From assembly GCA_965207065.1 (NCBI GenBank), contig OZ242260.1, positions 2,240,001 through 2,304,000 of the forward strand: a DNA stretch of 64,000 bases, written 5' to 3'. The stretch is from a bacterium. GTDB lineage: Bacteria > UBA8248. The notes beneath the pieces were generated by a model. It did no database searches. It was given only the letters and a program-made list of their open reading frames with translations, and was not told the DNA's origin. The translations under genes were made by a program, and so were the position numbers. Positions 19,518 through 53,548 of this stretch are shown piece after piece (the stretch's first letter is position 1; each line of letters begins with the position of its first letter).

Positions 19518-20449
19518 GTAACAGTTCGGCGGAGGGGTGATAACTTAGTCGATGCCGGAGACATTTGTAGGAATTGCGCGGTGTAGCCAGCTTCAGCTGG
19601 TGCTTTCCTTTTCTTTATCACCCCACGACCGAACGAATATTGCGCCAGGCTAAGCCCTGGAGAGGAGGATGCCATGACCTGAAACCTCTCGTAGCGACCC
19701 AGCGGGTTCGACTCCCGCCCGGCAAAGGCGAAGCCGGCCAGCCGGAAGCGAGTCTTGCATGGCGTGCGGCAACGCCCGTCGTGAAGCGTAGACAGCAGGT
19801 GATGAAGCGGCGGGGTAAGCCTCGAAATCGGTCAATCGACGACGCCTTCATTGTTAATCGTGTGGGGGCAGCACCAGGAGCGCCGCCAATGGCGAGGCGC
19901 AACGGGTCGTCCGGGGTCGTGGGCCGGCGCAAAGTCACGGGACGGGTCGCCAGGGAACCTGGGAGATCCTGCTCTTGCCCGTGGGCAAGAACGCTGGAAA
20001 GGGGACGGCCAGCGTGAACAATCCAGACCCCGGCCCGTCGCCGGACCTGCACGGCGGCGGGAGCGCCCCAGGGCGGACACGAACCCGGCAGGCGCCCGCG
20101 GAACCGGCTGGCCAAAACAATAAGCCGAAGGACATGCGAGGGTAGGAAGTCGTAGCGCCCTGATAGTACCGCTGAAGGCGGGGAACCGTGGCCATCGGGA
20201 CCCGCTGGAGGGAAGCGGGGCGTCATCTGTACAGAACCACTGATGGGAAACGATGGAGGAAACTCTGAGTTCCACCAACACGTACACGAAACAGCAGTGG
20301 ATAGCCGAACAGGCGAGGAATGCCTCGACCTGCGGACCAAGGGTGACAACCCCTTGAGCGAACCTGTCAGGTGAGGAACCGAGTGCGTCAATCGCGCACG
20401 CTCGGGTCTGCGGGGGGAGGGGCGCAGCAATGCCCCCTCCTACCCGGCC
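19518..20449. mobile_element. IS66-type MITE (122 bp at 19518..19639 plus terminal C at 20449) carrying an intron in its right TIR
   Basis: Left gtaacagttcggcggaggggtgataa, right ttatcaccccacgaccgaacgaata|c; 20/24 match to the IS66 TIR at 49409; flanked by aatggtta / atggtta. Confidence 0.8.
19640..20448 (+). ncRNA. ORF-less group II intron, copy A (809 nt)
   Basis: Starts TTGCG; near-identical to 45140.. until the early IEP; DV gaggaaccgagtgcgtcaatcgcgcacgctcgggtctg; DVI ends cctAcccggc. Confidence 0.92.
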
Positions 20450-45139: not shown

Positions 45140-45752
45140 TTGCGCCAGGCTAAGCCCTGGAGAGGAGGACGCCATGACCTGAAACCTCTCGTAGCGACCC
45201 AGCGGGTTCGACTCCCGCCCGGCAAAGGCGAAGCCGGCCAGCCGGAAGCGAGTCTTGCATGGCGTGCGGCAACGCCCGTCGTGAAGCGTAGACAGCAGGT
45301 GATGAAGCGGCGGGGTAAGCCTCGAAATCGGTCAATCGACGACGCCTTCATTGTTAATCGTGTGGGGGCAGCACCGGGAGCGCCGCCAATGGCGAGGCGC
45401 AACGGGTCGTCCGGGGTCGTGGGCCGGCGCAAAGTCACGGGACGGGTCGCCAGGGAACCTGGGAGATCCTGCTCTTGCCCGTGGGAAAGAACGCTGGAAA
45501 GGGGACGGCCAGCGTGAACAATCCAGACCCCGGCCCGTCGCCGGACCTGCACGGCGGCGGGAGCGCCCCAGGGCGGACACGAACCCGGCAGGCGCCCGCG
45601 GAACCGGCTGGCGAAAACAATAAGCCGAAGGACATGCGAGGGCAGGAAGTCGTAGCGCCCTGATAGTACCGCTGAAGGCGGGGAACCGTGGCCATCGGGA
45701 CCCGCTGGAGGGAAGCGGGGCGTCATCTGTACAGAACCACTGATGGGAAACG

Positions 45753-48700
45753 ATGGAGGAAACTCTGAGTTCCACCAACACGTACACGAAACAGCAGTGG
45801 ATAGCCGAACAGGCGAGGGAGCATCCGGAGCGGGTGTTCACGTCCCTGCACCACCTCATCGACGGCGAGTGGATGCGCGAAGCGTATCGCCGCACGCGCA
45901 AGGATGGGGCGAGGGGTATCGACGGCGTGAGCGCCGCCGACTACGAGAAGGACCTGGAGGTGAATCTTGACGACCTCCTGAGCCGGATGAAGTCGGGTCG
46001 ATACTTTGCGCCGCCGGTGCGTCGGCACTACATCCCGAAGGCGGACGGCACGAAACGACCGCTCGGCATTCCGACGTTCGAAGACAAGGTGGCGCAGCGG
46101 GCAATCCTGATGCTGCTGGAGCCGATTTACGAGACGGACTTCCTGACGTGCTCGTACGGCTTCCGGCCCGGACGGTCGGCTCACGATGCCCTGGGCGCAC
46201 TTCGCACGGGCATCATCGAGCAGCGCCAACGGTGGGTGATTGACGCCGATATCTCGAAGAACTTCGACTCGATATCGCACACCCACCTGCGGTCAATCCT
46301 CGACCTGCGGATTAAGGACGGCGTCGTAAGGCGCATGATTGACAAATGGCTGAAAGCGGGGGTGCTCGAAGAGGGAGCCGTGCACAGGCCGGTCACCGGC
46401 ACTCCCCAAGGCGGGGTAATGACACCCCGAACGCAAAAGGCAACTTCCAGTTTGAGCGCCAGATTGTGGCGTGGCGGGATCGTTCGTTACTTGATTATCG
46501 TCGCAAGAGGTAATATCATTATGACAAATGACGCGTTCAACGAAGTCCCAGAAAGCCGAGCGGATCAACGCAGCCTACACGCTGCTCGCGCAGGGCGTCA
46601 CGGCGAACGAGGCTGTAGCGCTGCTATCGCAGCGTTTCGGCGTATCGAAGCGGCAGTCCTACCGCTACGTTCAGCAGGCGGTAGCCATGGACCGGCCGGC
46701 AGAGCCGGTCGAATCCCGGATTCCCATCACCATCAAGATTCCGGGCGTGTTGGCGCAAGCCCTGCGTACGCACGCCAGAAGCAGCGGCCAGGCCATCGGG
46801 GACATCGTTGCACGGGCCCTGAGACGCTTTCTCCCGGATGTGGATTGAAATGGCTGCGCGTCGCCCGGGTTCGCGGCCCGGCGTTGAACTTGATTATCGT
46901 TTCGATCGCCTGTTCGCAGCCAGGCTCCAGAATGCCTACGAGATACTGGTTCCTGATCAGGCCCACAAAATCCCTGCCCGAAGACATGACACAGGAGACG
47001 AGGATGAAAGTCGCAGCCCTTTATGCGCGAGTCTCGGGCGAGCAGCAGAGGGAGAGCAACACGATCGCCAGCCAGACCGAGGCGCTGGTCGAATACGCCA
47101 GGAACCACGGCTACAGCGTCGCGCCGGAGATGCTCGTCGAGGATGACGGCTACAGCGGCGCTGTTCTCGAGCGTCCGGGGCTGGAGCGGATCAGGGACCT
47201 CGCCGCGGAAGGGCGCTTCGATACATTGGTGGTTCATGCCCCGGACCGTTTGAGCCGCCGCTACGCCCACCAGATGCTGATCATCGAGGAGATGGCCCGC
47301 CAGGGCGTTGAGACCGTGTTCGTGAACGCGCCGTCGATGGAAACCCCGGAAGACAACCTCCTCGTCCAGTTCCAGGGCATGATCGCGGAATACGAGCGCG
47401 CACAGATCCTGGAGCGTTCGCGTCGCGGCAAGCGTCATCGGGCGCAGCGTGGTGAAGTTGCGGTTCTCGGAGGCGCGCCTTATGGCTACCGCTACCACAA
47501 GAAAACCTTCGAGAGCGATGCCTATTATGAAGTGCTCGAACCTCAGGCGTCGGTGGTTCGCGAAGTCTATCACTACTATACTCATGACCACATGAGCATT
47601 GGCGAGATCACCCGCAAGCTCAACGAGCGGGCGGTGCCCACGTCCTCCGGTCGCGGACGCTGGGAGCGTTCGGCCGTGTGGGCGATGCTGCGCAACCCGG
47701 CGTACAAGGGCAAGGCGTGTTTCGGCAAGACCCGCCAGATGCCGCGAAAAATCGTGACCCGTCCCTTGCGATTGCGCGGCGGTGTGGCCGGCGCCACCAC
47801 CGGCGGTCACGAGAAACCGCGTGAGGAATGGATCGAGATTCCGGTGCCGGCGATCGTCAGCGAGGAAACCTTCGCCCTGGCCGAAGAGCGGCTGGAGATG
47901 AACTAGGCCCGCGGGCCGCGCCGAACAAAGACGCCCAGCGTGGTGCAGGGGCTGGTCTCATGCGCCAAATGCGGCTATTCCCTGTATCGCACATCGACCC
48001 GGACGAGCGCCCGCACGATTTACTATTATCGCTGCCTGGGGCCCGATGCATGGCGGCATCTCAACGGGCCGGTATGCGACAATCGGCCGGTGCGCCAGGA
48101 TCTGCTTGACGAAGTTGTCTGGAGCGAAGTCGTCCGCCTTCTCGAGGATCCGAATCTGATCGGCGCCGAGATCGAGCGTCGGCTGGAGGCGGCCCGCGAC
48201 TCCGACCCCAGTCGGCAGCGCGAGACCGACTTGCGGCGCCGGTTGATCAGGGGACGAAAGAGTATCGACCGCCTGGTCAATGCCTATCAGGAGGAGCTGA
48301 TCACCATCGACGAACTGCGCGAGAGAACGCCCGAACTACGTCGTCAGGAACAGGCCCTTCATCGTGAGCTGCAGTCCGTTGTCGACCAGGTCAAGGATCG
48401 GGAAACCTACCTCCGGCTCGCCGACACGCTGACCGGGTTCCTGGCGCGGCTTCGCCCTCCGCCCGGACTCTGGGTGCCATCGAGCAACAGCTCCTTGTCC
48501 GTCTCCTCGTCAAGGAGGTATTGGTCAGTGAGGAGAAGATCACCATTCGCCATTCCATCCCGATCCCGGGGACGTCCCGTGGCAGTCCGGCCCCGTCCGA
48601 ACCCGACGACGGAGGCGAAAAGCAAAGTTACCTTTTGCGTTCGGGGTGTCATCTCGCCAATGCTTTCCAACATCTTCCTGCACCACGTGCTGGATAAGTG

Positions 48701-49325
48701 GTTCGAGGAAGAGGCGAGGCCGCGCTTGCGCGGAAACTGCCAGTTGGTGCGATTCGCCGACGACTTTGTCGTCGCCCTGGAAGACCGCCACAGCGGCAAG
48801 CGATTGCTTGACGTGCTGGGCAAACGTCTCGGCCGATACGGACTCACGCTCCATGAGACCAAGACGCGCTATGTGGACTTCCGCCGGAGGCGTCCCTACG
48901 GGCGTCACTGGATGGCGTCGGCCACGACGTTCGACTTCCTCGGCTTCACCCACGTCTGGGGGCGGTCGATGCAAGGCAAGGACGTCGTCCGCCAAATCAC
49001 GGCGAAAGGCCGCTTCGCCCGCGCGCTGAAATCGGTGCACGAATGGTGCAAGAGAAACCGGCACCTGCCGGTCAAGGCGCAGCATGACTATCTCGTCCGG
49101 GCGATACGAAGCCACTGCGCATATTACGGTCTGAGGGGGAACGGCAAACGTCTTCGGTGGTTCCGCTACCAGGTGGCTCGCACGTGGCGGAAGTGGCTTG
49201 CGCGCCGCAACCGCCTGCGTCGCATGAACCGGGACTGGATGAACGCGCTCCTCATGCGATACCCTCTTCCATATGTCTCTTACGCGCGCTCACGGCAAAG
49301 CTTCCTGAGCGAACCTGTCAGGTGA
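45753..49325 (+). CDS. ltrA: Group II intron reverse transcriptase/maturase, interrupted (45753..46420 + 48653..49325 = 446 aa; no endonuclease domain evident)
   Basis: RPLGIPTFEDK, SYGFRPGRSAH, GTPQGGV|ISP, VRFADD, FDFLGFT. Confidence 0.92.
46528..46848 (+). CDS. Small HTH / ribbon-helix-helix-like accessory protein of the recombinase element
   Basis: LSQRFGVSKRQSYRY; ITIKIP...IGDIVARALRRFL. Confidence 0.65.
   Translation: MTRSTKSQKAERINAAYTLLAQGVTANEAVALLSQRFGVSKRQSYRYVQQAVAMDRPAEPVESRIPITIKIPGVLAQALRTHARSSGQAIGDIVARALRRFLPDVD
47004..48650 (+). pseudogene. Large serine recombinase (resolvase, recombinase and Zn-ribbon domains), inactivated
   Basis: YARVS, DDGYSG...RPGL, DRLSR, CAKCG; in-frame TAG 47904-06; frameshift near 48455; corrected frame runs into the right IR (YLLRSG). 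Confidence 0.9.
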
Positions 49326-49443
49326 GGAACCGAGTGCGTCAATCGCGCACGCTCGGGTCTGTGGGGGGCGGGGCGCAGAAATGCCCCCGCCTACCCGGCC
49401 AATGCTCCGTAACCGTTCGGCGACAGGGTGATGGGAGTTGTTT

Positions 49444-50315
49444 CAGCGATTGAGGACTTGCTTCCAGTTGTTCCGGAGGGGACGTAGTCAGACATCCTTT
49501 TTGGGTTTGTCGTGGCGTTTGTACCTGTCGTATCGTCCGCGTCCCTGTGTGGTTCCGACGTGAATCCATCCTGAAGCCCTGTAGACGGCGCCGGTGTAGC
49601 GCGGCGTCTCGACGAAGGTCTCGATGAGGACGGGGGTGGTATTGTAGCGTTCGGTCCAGTCGTCGGGCAGGCGCCGGCGGATGATGGCGAGGAGATGCGA
49701 GCCGAGGTTGGGGATCTTGATCCATGGCAGGATGAGGAACCTCGGGTTGTCGACCACGAGGGGAAGGTTCTTCTCGCGCAACTGCGGCGTCCAGCCGATG
49801 AAGGCATCGCGCGGGGCGAGCTTCCACGCGGCGGTGGAGAAGCCGAGCATGGCGAGGGGCCTGCCGCCCCGGTCATGTACGGCGTAGCGCATCTGGGCGC
49901 CGACGAGGGTCTTGTAGCCGAGGTAGTGGTAGCGTGCGACGAACTCGTTCCAGAGCCTGCCCTCGCGGGTTCCGCGCACGACGATGCGCATCCCGAGGGG
50001 ACGGACCTCGTCGAGGGTCTCGGGCGCCGGGATGAGAGGCGCTTCGGTGTCTGGCCCGAAGACGATCGGCCGGGCCGGGTGCCGCGGGCGCTTCGGCGGG
50101 GGAAGCGTGATCAGGCCGTCTCTGTGCATGGCGAGCATGGTCACCCGGGCCATCATGTCCTTGAGTCCGCCGTCGGGCTTGAACCAGCCGATGCGCCGGC
50201 AGAACTCCTTGGAGAGCACGTTGCGATTGAGCGCGGGAGGGCCGGCGATCAGTTCGCGCAGCAGCGCCATCTCTTCCGTCGTGAAGTCGCGTCCGTAGTA
50301 GCGGCACTCGATCAC
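49444..50315 (-). CDS. DUF4338 (DruA-like) protein; premature TGA at 49488 trims about 14 aa
   Basis: WNEFVARYHYLGY, RDAFIGW, RFLILPW, NLGSH, LIETFV, YRASGW..VGTTQGRGR; TGG>TGA relative to the 44558 copy. Confidence 0.85.
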
Positions 50316-50319
50316 GGCG

Positions 50320-52632
50320 TCATCCCGGCGCCGTGAGGGCGCGCCTGCGCTCGGCGCTCATCGACCAGGGCAGCCACGCGGAGAGGTCCCCGGGCGCCCG
50401 GCCGCCGATCTGCGCGCAGGCGGTGAGCCATGCATCGAGCCAGCGGAGCGGGTCGATGCCGTTCGAGGAGAGTGTGCCGAGGACCGAGTACATCATTGCC
50501 GTGAACCCGGCGCCGGCCTCGCTGTCGGAGCCGAACGAGAGCCGCCTCCCGATCACGGGACCCCTGAGCACGCGTTCGATGGCGTTATTATCTGTCGGCA
50601 CCCAGGGGCGCTCGAGGAAGACGCTCAGCCCCTCGCGGTGGTTCAGCAGCGAGCGAAGCGCCTTGCCCTCGCGCGCCTGCGCTGGCAGGGCGGCCAGTTC
50701 GCGTCGGGCCTGCGCGAACAGGCCCTCGAGCGCCTTCTTCAATTCGTCGTGCGCCGCGTCGAACGCCGCGTCCTGGTGTTCGAGACCTGAGTCGTAACGG
50801 GCCAGGCGCGCCTCGTTCAGGCGGTAGAGCAAGGCGATCCGCTCGATCCACCTCTCGCACCACGGCGTCAGGCGCGCCTCGCCGGCCGCGCAGTCGATAA
50901 TGGTTCTTCTTTGGTGTACCCAACATGATGCGAGAGTGACCAGACCCCCGAGTTCGCGCGCCAGCTTCTTGTAGGCGCTGTAGCGGTCGCAGACGAGGAC
51001 CGTATGGCGGCCGGCCGCGCCGAAGAGCTTCATCGCGACCTCCGCACTCCGCGAGGGGTCGACGTGGAAGTAGACGGAGTCTGCGCTTAACGAGGCCCAC
51101 AGCCAGGCGCGGCTCGAGCGCCCCTGCTCGCGAAGCGACTGTATCCGCCAGGTCGTCTCGTCCCCGTGGCGCAGCGCAGACTCGTTCTGGCGGGCGAGGA
51201 TAGCCCCGGCCAGCGGCTCGAACAGGGGCGTGAACCGGTGCGCGCTGTCGCCCAGCGTCCCCGCCGAGACGGCAAGCCCCTGGTCGGAGAGCCACGCGGC
51301 GACCCGGCGCAGCGGGCGGAAGCAGGCGTAGCGCTCGAACAGGAAGCGCGCCCATACGCTCGTCCCGAAGGACGTGCCCGCGAACAGGCGCGGCGCGGGC
51401 GGCGCCGACACCTCCATGGGAGACGATGCGCATTCGCACCCCCGGCGCCACCTCGGACGGCGGATGACGCGCTTGTGGGCCGAGACCTCGATCTCGACGA
51501 GGCTCGATACACGCGCGCCGTTGGCCACGTAGGGCTGCCCGCAACAGGCGCAGACGCGCGCACCGGGCGGCGGGTTGCGAACTTCCGTCCTCGCCTCGAG
51601 CGCGGGACGAGGGGTGCGGCCATGGCCCCGGGCGCCGGGCTGCCCGCCGCGCCTGCGCTCCGAGCGTGGCTTCTCCTGCCGCTCGCTCTTGCGCCCGAAC
51701 AGCCTCCTCGCCAGCACCGCTCCCGTGGCGCGAAGCTTCGCGAGTTCGGCCTCCAGCCGCGCACGGCGGGCTTCCGACTTGCGTAGCGCACGGCGCAACC
51801 GCGCGTTCTCCCTGGTCAGGGACCCGAGCGCCGTCTTCTGGCGCCGCGACCTCCCCAGGGCCTTGCGAAGCGCCTCGTCCGAACGAGGCGTCCTCGAGCG
51901 CGCCGCCTCCTTCGCGCGCAACAGCCGCTCCTTCAGCCCCTCCTTCACTCTGGCTGCGGCCCTGAGAGAGACCCGCAAATCGTCGCGCGATTCCCGTAAC
52001 TTCCCGTAGAGCCGGATAAGCTCCTCTTCACGATACCCGATGGTCTTCTTGTGATCCGCCGTCTCCAGCTTCTCCCAGGCCAGCCGATCCTCCAGCCGGG
52101 CGACATCCTTCTCCCGCCCCTCAAGCTCCTCGCGAAGAGACTCTATCGTCTTCTCCTGCTTCTCCACGACCCGGCGCAGCCGCGCGGCCTCCTTCGGTGG
52201 CAAAGCGCCCGAGAGGGCCTTGTTCAACCGGGCCACATCCTTGCGCAGCGACTCGAGCGGGCTGCGCTCCCCCGGCTCGACTCCCGCTTCCGCGAGCAGC
52301 TTCTCCAGCCGCGCCACTTCCGCCTTGAGCGACAGCGCGTCCTTCGCCGCGCGGCGGGCTTCCTTCGCCTCCCCGGCTACCTCCTCAAGCTTCCTCCGGC
52401 TCTTGTCGAGACACCACTTCAGCGAACCCGCCCGCGCGCGCGAATCCACTTCCGCCCACCGCAACTCCTCGCAGCGCGCCTCCGCCGCCTCCGCGCGCGC
52501 ACGCGCGCGCTCGTACAGCGAACGCCAGTACGCCTCTGCTGTTGCGGGCAACCCGGGAGAATGAGGACATGGGGCATCCGGCCTCTCGACCAACGCCGGC
52601 TTCGTCTCGACAGCTTCCGTGCAAATCTTCAT
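50320..52632 (-). CDS. IS66-family transposase with long N-terminal coiled coil
   Basis: LFGRKSE, CACCG Zn motif, HGDETTW, VCDRYSAY, CWVHQRR, TDNNAIERVLR. Confidence 0.92.
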   Translation of the reverse strand: MKICTEAVETKPALVERPDAPCPHSPGLPATAEAYWRSLYERARARAEAAEARCEELRWAEVDSRARAGSLKWCLDKSRRKLEEVAGEAKEARRAAKDALSLKAEVARLEKLLAEAGVEPGERSPLESLRKDVARLNKALSGALPPKEAARLRRVVEKQEKTIESLREELEGREKDVARLEDRLAWEKLETADHKKTIGYREEELIRLYGKLRESRDDLRVSLRAAARVKEGLKERLLRAKEAARSRTPRSDEALRKALGRSRRQKTALGSLTRENARLRRALRKSEARRARLEAELAKLRATGAVLARRLFGRKSERQEKPRSERRRGGQPGARGHGRTPRPALEARTEVRNPPPGARVCACCGQPYVANGARVSSLVEIEVSAHKRVIRRPRWRRGCECASSPMEVSAPPAPRLFAGTSFGTSVWARFLFERYACFRPLRRVAAWLSDQGLAVSAGTLGDSAHRFTPLFEPLAGAILARQNESALRHGDETTWRIQSLREQGRSSRAWLWASLSADSVYFHVDPSRSAEVAMKLFGAAGRHTVLVCDRYSAYKKLARELGGLVTLASCWVHQRRTIIDCAAGEARLTPWCERWIERIALLYRLNEARLARYDSGLEHQDAAFDAAHDELKKALEGLFAQARRELAALPAQAREGKALRSLLNHREGLSVFLERPWVPTDNNAIERVLRGPVIGRRLSFGSDSEAGAGFTAMMYSVLGTLSSNGIDPLRWLDAWLTACAQIGGRAPGDLSAWLPWSMSAERRRALTAPG

Positions 52633-52739: not shown

Positions 52740-53548
52740 TTGCGCCAGGCTAAGCCCTGGAGAGGAGGATGCCATGACCTGAAACCTCTCGTAGCGACCC
52801 AGAGGGTTCGACTCCCGCCCGGCAAAGGCGAAGCCGGCCAGCCGGAAGCGAGTCTTGCATGGCGTGCGGCAACGCCCGTCGTGAAGCGTAGACAGCAGGT
52901 GATGAAGCGGCGGGGTAAGCCTCGAAATCGGTCAATCGACGACGCCTTCATTGTTAATCGTGTGGGGGCAGCACCGGGAGCGCCGCCAATGGCGAGGCGC
53001 AACGGGTCGTCCGGGGTCGTGGGCCGGCGCAAAGTCACGGGACGGGTCGCCAGGGAACCTGGGAGATCCTGCTCTTGCCCGTGGGCAAGAACGCTGGAAA
53101 GGGGACGGCCAGCGTGAACAATCCAGACCCCGGCCCGTCGCCGGACCTGCACGGCGGCGGGAGCGCCCCAGGGCGGACACGAACCCGGCAGGCGCCCGCG
53201 GAACCGGCTGGCCAAAACAATAAGCCGAAGGACATGCGAGGGTAGGAAGTCGTAGCGCCCTGATAGTACCGCTGAAGGCGGGGAACCGTGGCCATCGGGA
53301 CCCGCTGGAGGGAAGCGGGGCGTCATCTGTACAGAACCACTGATGGGAAACGATGGAGGAAACTCTGAGTTCCACCAACACGTACACGAAACAGCAGTGG
53401 ATAGCCGAACAGGCGAGGAATGCCTCGACCTGCGGACCAAGGGTGACAACCCCTTGAGCGAACCTGTCAGGTGAGGAACCGAGTGCGTCAATCGCGCACG
53501 CTCGGGTCTGCGGGGGGAGGGGCGCAGCAATGCCCCCTCCTACCCGGC
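52740..53548 (+). ncRNA. ORF-less group II intron, copy C (809 nt)
   Basis: Same length and deletion junction as copy A, at least 2 SNPs apart. Confidence 0.92.

Follow-up and report, generated by a model that had tools for sequence, protein, structure and literature searches.

A decayed large serine recombinase element in a group II intron reverse transcriptase gene, and its relatives at the same reverse transcriptase motif

We analysed a stretch of 64,000 nucleotides from a bacterium of the UBA8248 lineage (GenBank assembly GCA_965207065.1, contig OZ242260.1, positions 2,240,001 to 2,304,000, forward strand; hereafter the window), which belongs to a genome that consists of one 4.48-Mb contig. 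The window holds a group II intron whose reverse transcriptase (RT) gene is split by a 2230-bp element (46421-48650) encoding a large serine recombinase (LSR) and two smaller open reading frames (ORF1 and ORF2). A first reading of the letters alone, the original prediction, had described an insertion sequence (IS)-like LSR element lodged in the intron. The features of the intron and the element are as follows, in window coordinates.

45140..49409, plus strand: host group II intron (RF02005, RF00029; bounds taken from the flanking inverted repeat)
45753..46418, plus strand: N-terminal half of the RT, 222 codons, ending ..GTPQGGV (RVT_1 positions 1-124)
46419..46420, no strand: left copy of the AT core, the first two bases of the RT Ile codon (single AT in the empty paralogue)
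46421..46446, plus strand: left terminal inverted repeat, 26 nt, putative P' half-site of the phage-type attachment site, attP (family-conserved sequence, ..CCCYGAACGCAAAAGGYAAC)
46421..46513, plus strand: segment that encodes the last 30 LSR residues and the stop TAA (46511-46513) when the ends are joined
46491..46519, plus strand: promoter-like site (consensus match)
46528..46848, plus strand: ORF1, predicted DNA-binding protein with helix-turn-helix (HTH) and ribbon-helix-helix (RHH) parts (RHH_1 match, model)
about 46850..47146, plus strand: ORF2, small conserved protein, candidate recombination directionality factor
47004..47903, plus strand: LSR residues 1-300, Resolvase and Recombinase domains (Pfam)
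47904..47906, plus strand: premature TAG stop in the LSR (comparison with relatives and with a second copy)
47907..48455, plus strand: LSR residues 302-484 in unchanged frame, with zinc ribbon and putative coiled-coil region (83% identical to relative L015)
48455..48458, plus strand: frameshift, one base missing (frame change between tblastn alignments; contigs of runs X21 and X24)
48458..48650, plus strand: LSR residues about 486-550, shifted frame, running through the right repeat without a stop
48625..48650, minus strand: right terminal inverted repeat, 26 nt, putative P half-site of attP (repeat search)
48651..48652, no strand: right copy of the AT core (empty-site comparison)
48651..49325, plus strand: C-terminal half of the RT, ISPMLSNIF.., 224 codons plus stop (RVT_1 positions 125-204)

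A repeat search of the window finds the ends of the element as an inverted pair of 28 nt (46419-46446 and 48625-48652) that is complementary at 27 of 28 positions; without the outer AT, the terminal arms are 26 nt each and match at 25 positions. The left RT piece (45753-46418, 222 amino acids) aligns to positions 1-124 of the Pfam RVT_1 profile and the right piece (48651-49322, 224 amino acids) to positions 125-204, and since the two pieces end and begin at adjacent profile positions, the cut is exact. It falls between GTPQGGV and ISPMLSN, and the two pieces add up to 446 amino acids. The same genome has a second copy of this intron (G000 1477043-1478111), 99% and 97% identical to the two RT halves, in which the halves lie exactly two bases apart. 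This paralogous intron carries GGGGTAATCTCGCC with a single AT, and its uninterrupted RT reads GTPQGGVISPMLSN; the alignment of the empty site reads GGCGGGGTAATCTCGCC, again with one AT. Because there is one AT in the empty site and an AT at both junctions in the window, the element entered at the AT, and the insertion is precise, with the 2-bp AT on either side. The host is identified as a group II intron by ribozyme domain matches together with RVT_1 matches on both RT halves: RF02005 scores 123.6 bits at 45209-45426 (gathering score 49), and RF00029 scores 35.3 bits at 49325-49399, under its gathering score of 40. A profile search did not detect the GIIM domain in the C-terminal half of the window RT.

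The LSR starts at 47004 and matches Resolvase (PF00239, E = 1.8e-35), Recombinase (PF07508, E = 6.5e-20) and Zn_ribbon_recom (PF13408, E = 1.1e-10). R9 and S11 of its YARVS motif are invariant in 29 relatives and are kept in the window copy, and the zinc-ribbon cysteines C320, C323, C344 and C358 are invariant among relatives. Residues 283-515 align to residues 105-317 of the A118 integrase C-terminal domain (E = 6e-4), a match over the putative coiled-coil region; among solved chains, the SPbeta SprA (YokA), TP901-1 and A118 integrases come nearest. No NCBIfam model reaches its cut-off for the LSR, the XisF model remaining below threshold at 100.7 bits against a cut-off of 375. By its domain content and the 2-bp core, the enzyme is a large serine recombinase. 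ORF1 is a conserved 109-amino-acid protein in relatives and has 106 residues and an altered 3' end in the window. A relative of ORF1 matches the CopG-type RHH family RHH_1 (E = 2.4e-4), and no NCBIfam family matched. The predicted fold has three N-terminal helices followed by an RHH-like C-terminal helix pair, with a mean predicted local distance difference test score (pLDDT) of 88.6; a fold search of the PDB with the whole chain showed local resemblance to RHH and HTH folds, but no match at E<=0.001. ORF2, for which no Pfam or NCBIfam family matched, is present in 29 of 32 distinct relatives, and its core aligns among them as LDYAFDRLL..KL..AY.ILVPD. Upstream of ORF1 lies a promoter-like TTGATT-17-TATCAT, a consensus match only, of which one was found and 0.6 expected. 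A perfect 13-nt direct repeat, ACTTGATTATCGT, occurs at 46489-46501, overlapping the -35 of this promoter-like site, and at 46888-46900, inside ORF2; it is a possible operator for the ORF1 protein. The element is thus IS-like, being small, bounded by terminal inverted repeats, equipped with mobility genes only and multi-copy in relatives: it is under about 3 kb, all three of its ORFs are regulator or recombinase-linked with no cargo ORF, and the ORF list and a profile search yield no DDE transposase gene inside it.

These results agree with what the original prediction had said of the locus. The 2230-bp element with 25 of 26 matching end positions and a duplicated AT at the GTPQGGV-ISP junction is found by the repeat search and the empty paralogue, and the statement that excision would restore a 446-residue intron-encoded protein in frame fits the 222- and 224-residue halves and the uninterrupted paralogous RT. 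The predicted trio of an HTH/RHH-like protein, a small ORF and an LSR is borne out by the Pfam domains, the conservation of ORF2 and the ORF1 model. An IS-like LSR element with a nearly palindromic attachment site is likewise what the 2.2-kb size, the three ORFs, the multi-copy relatives and the 26-nt ends meeting at a 2-bp core describe.

The window by itself holds a single insertion, and the case for a preferred target comes from relatives. We scanned one genome per species with the LSR N-terminus as query, which gave 584 stretches, and analysed the best 79 loci, at 63-85% identity. These 79 come from Binatia, Alpha- and Gammaproteobacteria, Acidobacteriota, Gemmatimonadaceae, Spirochaetia, Vulcanimicrobiaceae and others; cultured Bradyrhizobium and Sinorhizobium are among the carriers of relatives. 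One Pseudomonadales metagenome-assembled genome (MAG) has nine loci, and several other MAGs have three or four. Element ends were located by a conserved motif of 16 nt, of which at least 12 had to match, and the flanks were then read. This gave 134 ends, including the two of the window element and one of a second copy in its genome that is described below. An RT half adjoins 94 of the 134 under strict adjacency, by which a tblastn alignment has to reach the junction at RT residue 218-222 or 1-5, and an RT-type flank, by tblastn or by codon motif, is present at 118, of which 61 are on the PQG side and 57 on the SP side. Fifty-four elements of 2100-2400 bp have both ends (L021, L033, L062 and L076 were dropped for size), and 42 of these 54 sit at the same RT codon, 24 in forward and 18 in reverse orientation; five of the others have two like flanks and seven have at least one non-RT flank. 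The RTs that they interrupt are diverse: 41 C-terminal halves are 17-85% identical to that of the window and form 19 clusters at 50% identity, 40 of them matching RVT_1 and 28 matching GIIM, and intron RNA of five D1-D4 model types is present in 11 of 13 loci scanned. The logo from 39 distinct occupied sites reads GG.ac.CCgCAaGG.Ggggtg aT ctc.CC..TgcT..ccAAcaTcTtc, and in multi-copy genomes the similarity between copies stops exactly at the core dinucleotide. Comparison of the occupied sites thereby shows that the family inserts site-specifically in DNA for the RT motif PQG(G/S)x-(I/V/L)-SPxLxN of group II introns. The original prediction had asked whether flanks of the inverted repeat in other genomes would make RT genes a preferred target, and had named longer target duplications or unrelated targets as grounds against itself; the RT-type flanks at 118 of 134 ends, the 42 of 54 elements at one codon and the 2-bp flanks all fall on its side. 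The elements with two like RT-half flanks, both PQG or both SP, are L013, L035, L056, L079 and L083, a pattern that points to inversions or to exchanges between copies in different introns.

Among the 42 RT-inserted elements, the flanking dinucleotides read in RT orientation are AT on both sides in 22, GT on both sides in six, and mixed or other in 14, such that the core matches (AT/AT or GT/GT) in 28. No relative has a duplication beyond the 2-bp flank. The core is, on this comparison of flanks, shown to be the first two bases of an Ile, Val or Leu codon, mostly AT and sometimes GT. The orientation of serine integrase reactions depends only on the core dinucleotide; a palindromic AT core has no polarity, and the near-equal orientations (24 versus 18) therefore fit. 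Unlike flanking dinucleotides (AT with GT, AT with CT and so on) are seen in L010, L018, L022, L048, L060, L066, L067, L068 and others, and in L066 and L067 the odd core base goes with the right end of the element in both orientations.

The LSR gene has an unusual relation to the ends. Its frame has no stop inside the element in 47 of the 54 elements, and in the integrated state its length varies with the flank, from 556 to 948 codons. When right end, core and left end are joined in silico, a stop is reached 87, 90 or 93 nt into the left end in 45 of the 47, giving an LSR of 578-585 amino acids, and the other two frames over the junction close at +7 and +20 in most elements. The tail peptide thus encoded is conserved (..SYLLRSGxHxxxNAKGNFxFERxIxxWR......DLRRKx), and its length changes only in three-base steps; differences at codon positions 1, 2 and 3 number 1560, 1183 and 2229 among 21 distinct left ends beyond the repeat, with the third position in excess. 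In the window, residues 551-580 of the joined ORF of relatives map to 46418-46507 (tblastn, L015). A search of a protein collection with the natural 45-residue junction stretch of L097 found just one full-length case, the public 579-residue protein P0003, which has all three LSR domains and ends in the tail; since it carries the tail, the contiguous head-to-tail form appears to have been assembled at least once. Comparison among relatives thus shows that the LSR gene spans the joined ends, the enzyme of about 580 residues being, to judge from these reading frames, encoded only by a head-to-tail form, whether circular or tandem. The frame that runs into the right repeat, already noted in the original prediction, is by the same comparison a trait of the family rather than an artefact of decay. 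In a second public protein, P0009 (277 residues), an RT reads through PQGSPISPLYSNIYLNLLDQVWHRRGY and then directly into the tail peptide; here the element has entered a GG..T-AT look-alike about 20 codons farther downstream than usual.

We also looked for the head-to-tail junction itself. A degenerate 40-nt pattern found nothing among 96 loci and, in a metagenome collection, matched three contigs of one locus type (L097 2572-2706, also L098 and L099), in which a 42-nt remnant of another right end stands immediately before a complete element and is joined to it head to tail via AT. This is a tandem remnant, not a circle. Contigs of runs X19, X20, X21 and X24 (Logan contigs, not raw reads) skip 46418-48651; the empty paralogous intron of this genome or introns of relatives can account for the skips, which are no evidence of excision. 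Of the excised circle and restored site that the original prediction had suggested searching for, no circle was seen in these collections: the junction occurs in a tandem remnant, and the skipping contigs can be put down to empty introns.

For ORF2, we predicted the complex of LSR residues 283-550 with ORF2, using our own alignment for each, in three runs. The interface score ipSAE is 0.76 in all three runs, and the best of three controls gives 0.00; the ipSAE mark applied is reached by 58 of 80 solved complexes and by 2 of 110 mismatched pairs. The runs share at least 65% of their contacts, and the partner pLDDT is at least 58. In the model, conserved ORF2 residues 10-36 face LSR residues 371-393, 479-505 and 511-521, which make up the ITIRHSIP strand and the basal helices of the long helical region. 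The prediction supports binding of ORF2 to the LSR and makes ORF2 a candidate directionality factor.

The window copy itself is decayed. Its LSR has a premature TAG at 47904-47906, where relatives have K (residue 301) and a truncated copy elsewhere in the genome has AAG, and the frame changes between 48455 and 48458 relative to L015 (tblastn, 83% identical); contigs of runs X21 and X24 carry the unshifted version, with one T more after 48455. Both lesions had been called in the original prediction and are upheld by these comparisons. The truncated copy (L002 1501-3321; G000 1493317-1495137) is 98% identical and ends after element position 1825; it has AAG at the position of the stop in the window, yet another stop elsewhere. 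The site it occupies, AT TTCACCG, is a look-alike of the usual target and belongs to a small non-RT ORF next to a SIR2-like gene; a Pfam search of this flank found no match. The left repeat of the truncated copy differs at three positions despite the 98% identity of the remainder. A protein search of the genome finds two copies of the family, both broken, and no intact one; a distant LSR at 30% identity (G000 1512984-1514504), about 18 kb from the truncated copy, is apparently intact, with a match free of stops. Given the stop, the frameshift and the lack of an intact family copy in the genome, the window copy is immobile and the RT stays split: judged by its sequence, the element is a fossil that cannot move. 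The original prediction that the RT is off unless recombinase is supplied in trans holds for the split RT, with no intact family LSR in the genome, and needs to be qualified by the intact RT paralogue, which is 97-99% identical and may serve the interrupted intron in trans.

The intron is in turn nested in a further mobile element. It lies between two inverted 620-nt copies (96% identical) of the end of an IS66-family element with a DruA-like gene, and this confirms the three levels of nesting of the original prediction, namely IS66-family element end, group II intron and LSR element. The flanking features are the following.

44520..45139, minus strand: IS66-type element end fragment, 620 nt, 3' part of a DruA-like gene, inverted copy
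49410..52632, minus strand: IS66-family element with DruA-like gene (49488-50315) and IS66 transposase (50320-52632)

The intron sits at the exact centre of the inverted duplication (44520-45139 and 49410-50029), its exons being mirror images, and a 25-nt piece of the same IS66-type end lies directly upstream of an ORF-less intron copy at window position 52740, which suggests that the intron homes to this end. The 613-nt 5' part of the intron has seven full copies in the genome, 96-100% identical, at sites that include window 19640-20252 and 52740-53352 and G000 1524934, 28331 and 2308718. The RT-coding region matches the genome at three places only: the window, 1.477 Mb and, in part, 1.925 Mb. 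With seven 5' copies and three RT matches, most intron copies seem to be ORF-less and to need RT in trans. Contigs from other runs that link 45814-45824 to 49299-49306 at high depth represent the same ORF-less intron form. The three levels of nesting recur in a cultured strain: IS66-family transposase pieces also flank the LSR-split RT of L100, on plasmid pUSDA76 of Bradyrhizobium elkanii USDA 76 (209787-216439), where the annotation is generic: 'recombinase family protein', 'CopG family' and two 'reverse transcriptase domain-containing' fragments.

Taken together, we read the window element as a decayed, immobile copy of a small, IS-like, intron-RT-targeting LSR element whose recombinase gene runs across its joined ends, and put the probability of this reading at roughly 0.85. 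Several points weigh against it. Of the 134 ends, 16 lack an adjoining RT motif, although at least three of these (L054 left, L059 left and L033 right) are false end calls. The truncated second copy lies in a non-RT gene, its flank being scored as RT-like (SP side) by codon motif only. The core is not uniform, and a rule of strict 2-bp matching would not lead one to expect the 14 unlike pairs among 42, which might reflect single mismatches that were tolerated and then resolved by replication, or mutations that arose later. Identical flanks recur within genomes, and part of the copy number within a genome is owed to duplication of intron plus element or to recombination among copies. Neither the 96 loci nor the metagenome contigs showed a circular molecule, and the sample consists of the 79 closest of the 584 relative stretches. 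Lastly, the ORF2-LSR model is only a prediction and may echo solved structures of LSRs with directionality factors, such as the SPbeta entries.

The recurrence of flanks gives some room to the idea that the element is mainly passive cargo of the intron, or is spread by recombination of RT genes, the shared site then going back to a few old insertions in which the LSR played a minor part. Identical RT flanks recur in one genome (for example in L025, L027 and L028), flank combinations are shuffled such that pairs of two N-terminal or two C-terminal halves occur, and ORF-less or interrupted introns could be served in trans, there being seven intron 5' copies and three RT matches, one of them partial. 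We nevertheless consider passive spread unlikely, since near-identical elements lie in RTs that are only 17-40% identical, and in both orientations; within one genome, the elements resemble each other far more closely than do the RTs that host them; the genome of the window also contains this intron without the element; and the LSR, ORF1 and ORF2 are all conserved as proteins. We hold it very unlikely that the element has been domesticated as a switch that turns the intron RT on and off, in the manner of skin, SPbeta or fdxN, being excised on cue and retained for its control over the intron; the restoration of a 446-residue RT by precise excision and the resemblance of the LSR to XisF and SprA-type enzymes could be cited in favour. 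The element is multi-copy, in both orientations and in many phyla, its target gene belongs to a selfish element rather than to the host, decayed copies are stuck, and no host regulatory link was seen.

We attach hardly any weight to a one-off chance insertion of an ordinary LSR island or prophage remnant with no preference for RT genes. The window alone is indeed a single event, and the second genomic copy is in a non-RT gene, but 42 of 54 complete relatives share the codon, their host RTs form 19 clusters at 50% identity across many phyla, and even the non-RT flank of the second copy is target-like in its DNA (AT TTCACCG). Finally, ends of a DDE-type transposon (IS630/mariner-like, with a 2-bp duplication) moved by a transposase in trans, with the LSR as a passenger, would account for terminal inverted repeats and a 2-bp flank, and can be set aside given that the element has no DDE gene, that the LSR reading frame is built across both ends, that the flank is AT, GT or CT as set by the target codon rather than a fixed TA, and that 26-nt arms fit serine-integrase half-sites.

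On our preferred reading, that of an LSR element targeting intron RT genes, the LSR is the element's only enzyme. By analogy with known serine integrases, the two 26-nt inverted ends would each supply one half of a nearly palindromic attP that measures about 54 bp, and the RT motif DNA would be attB, the bacterial-type attachment site; strand exchange at the 2-bp core would leave the core on both sides, and a palindromic AT core would free the orientation. In the integrated copy, the comparison of reading frames shows, the last 30 or so LSR residues give way to whatever the flank encodes. ORF1, with its predicted HTH and RHH parts, would regulate transcription of the element, and ORF2 would dock at the base of the LSR coiled-coil region and act as a directionality factor. 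In the window, the RT of the intron is permanently split, and the intact paralogous RT may serve the intron in trans. More tentatively, and with less than even confidence, we propose a topological switch within a dedicated hyperparasite of group II introns that spans bacterial phyla. Because attP would lie inside the LSR gene, the excised form would make a 580-residue enzyme with a 30-residue tail (..NAKGNFxFERxIxxWR..DLRRK); this full, tailed enzyme and the tail-less or hybrid enzyme of the integrated form might, together with ORF2, favour opposite reactions, integration in one case and excision in the other; the DNA state itself, not a separately regulated factor, would then decide the direction.

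The family clearly exemplifies a selfish element that has specialised on a second selfish element. It lands where the intron RT gene is conserved best, in a stretch that no intron can alter without losing its enzyme; the element thereby gains a safe, multi-copy and horizontally travelling landing site, and the intron RT is knocked out. The family would also form a natural series of serine integrases whose attB is defined, long and conserved, with a logo from 39 sites, and whose attP is symmetric and spanned by the gene of the enzyme. This offers a testable model of how directionality can be built into the DNA state, and compact integration tools might be drawn from it. Annotation of such loci is generic, and intron censuses would count the split RTs as pseudogenes and miss the cause. 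Apparently intact copies in cultured, harmless rhizobia, among them Bradyrhizobium elkanii USDA 76, Bradyrhizobium sp. 141 and Sinorhizobium psoraleae CCBAU 65732, make a bench test possible.

The closest known enzymes are the serine integrases phiC31, Bxb1, A118/LI, TP901-1 and SPbeta SprA. Like the LSR of the element, they combine Resolvase, Recombinase and zinc ribbon domains; they use short att arms and a 2-bp core that ends up on both sides, as in the window; and they have a small partner near the base of the coiled coil, as is likewise predicted for ORF2. Unlike those systems, the present element is 2.2 kb long, without cargo and multi-copy, its attP would be a near-perfect palindrome formed by its own ends and spanned by the integrase gene, and its attB would be the coding sequence of a conserved protein motif in another mobile element. 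Durrant et al. (bioRxiv 10.1101/2021.11.05.467528), in the part of their work available to us, call an LSR cluster multi-targeting when it is found in many target-gene clusters at 50% identity; under that rule the present family would score as multi-targeting, yet its targets are one conserved motif and not a mark of relaxed specificity. The words reverse transcriptase, intron and maturase are absent from the main text of that preprint, whose supplements we have not seen. More broadly, at the level of titles, abstract openings and passages, with subscription journals mostly outside and supplements unseen, the literature describes neither an RT-targeting LSR element nor an LSR gene that spans attP.

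Genes that are altered or split by integration have precedents. In the integration-dependent immunity of mycobacteriophage BPs and its relatives, according to the passages available of PMC4557955, attP lies within an ORF, and integration alters the C-terminus of its product, such that the proteins of the free and integrated states differ. The loss of the LSR tail on integration recalls this, as far as those passages go; in BPs-type phages the split gene is a repressor gene and the integrase is a tyrosine integrase, whereas here the gene of the serine recombinase is itself split. In skin with SpoIVCA, SPbeta with SprA and fdxN with XisF, as in the present case, an LSR element splits a gene that precise excision restores, but those elements are single-copy, lie in host genes and are under developmental control, whereas the present family is multi-copy and lies in intron RT genes.

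A further parallel is with the transposons Tn4451/Tn4453 (TnpX) and Tn5397 (TndX), which are moved by a large serine recombinase. In those parts of the accounts of them on which we draw, an LSR acts as the 'transposase' via a circular form, in likeness to what we envisage here, and the joined ends of the circle matter for expression of the LSR. The present element differs in its lack of cargo, its AT or GT core and its defined RT motif target, and in that its junction completes the LSR coding sequence, with no sign of a promoter being built there. Transposons of the Tn4451/Tn5397 type carry resistance cargo and have GA ends. On the evidence of its genes and ends, we therefore suggest that the present element acts as an LSR-driven transposon of the Tn4451/Tn5397 kind, without cargo, with other ends and with a defined target.

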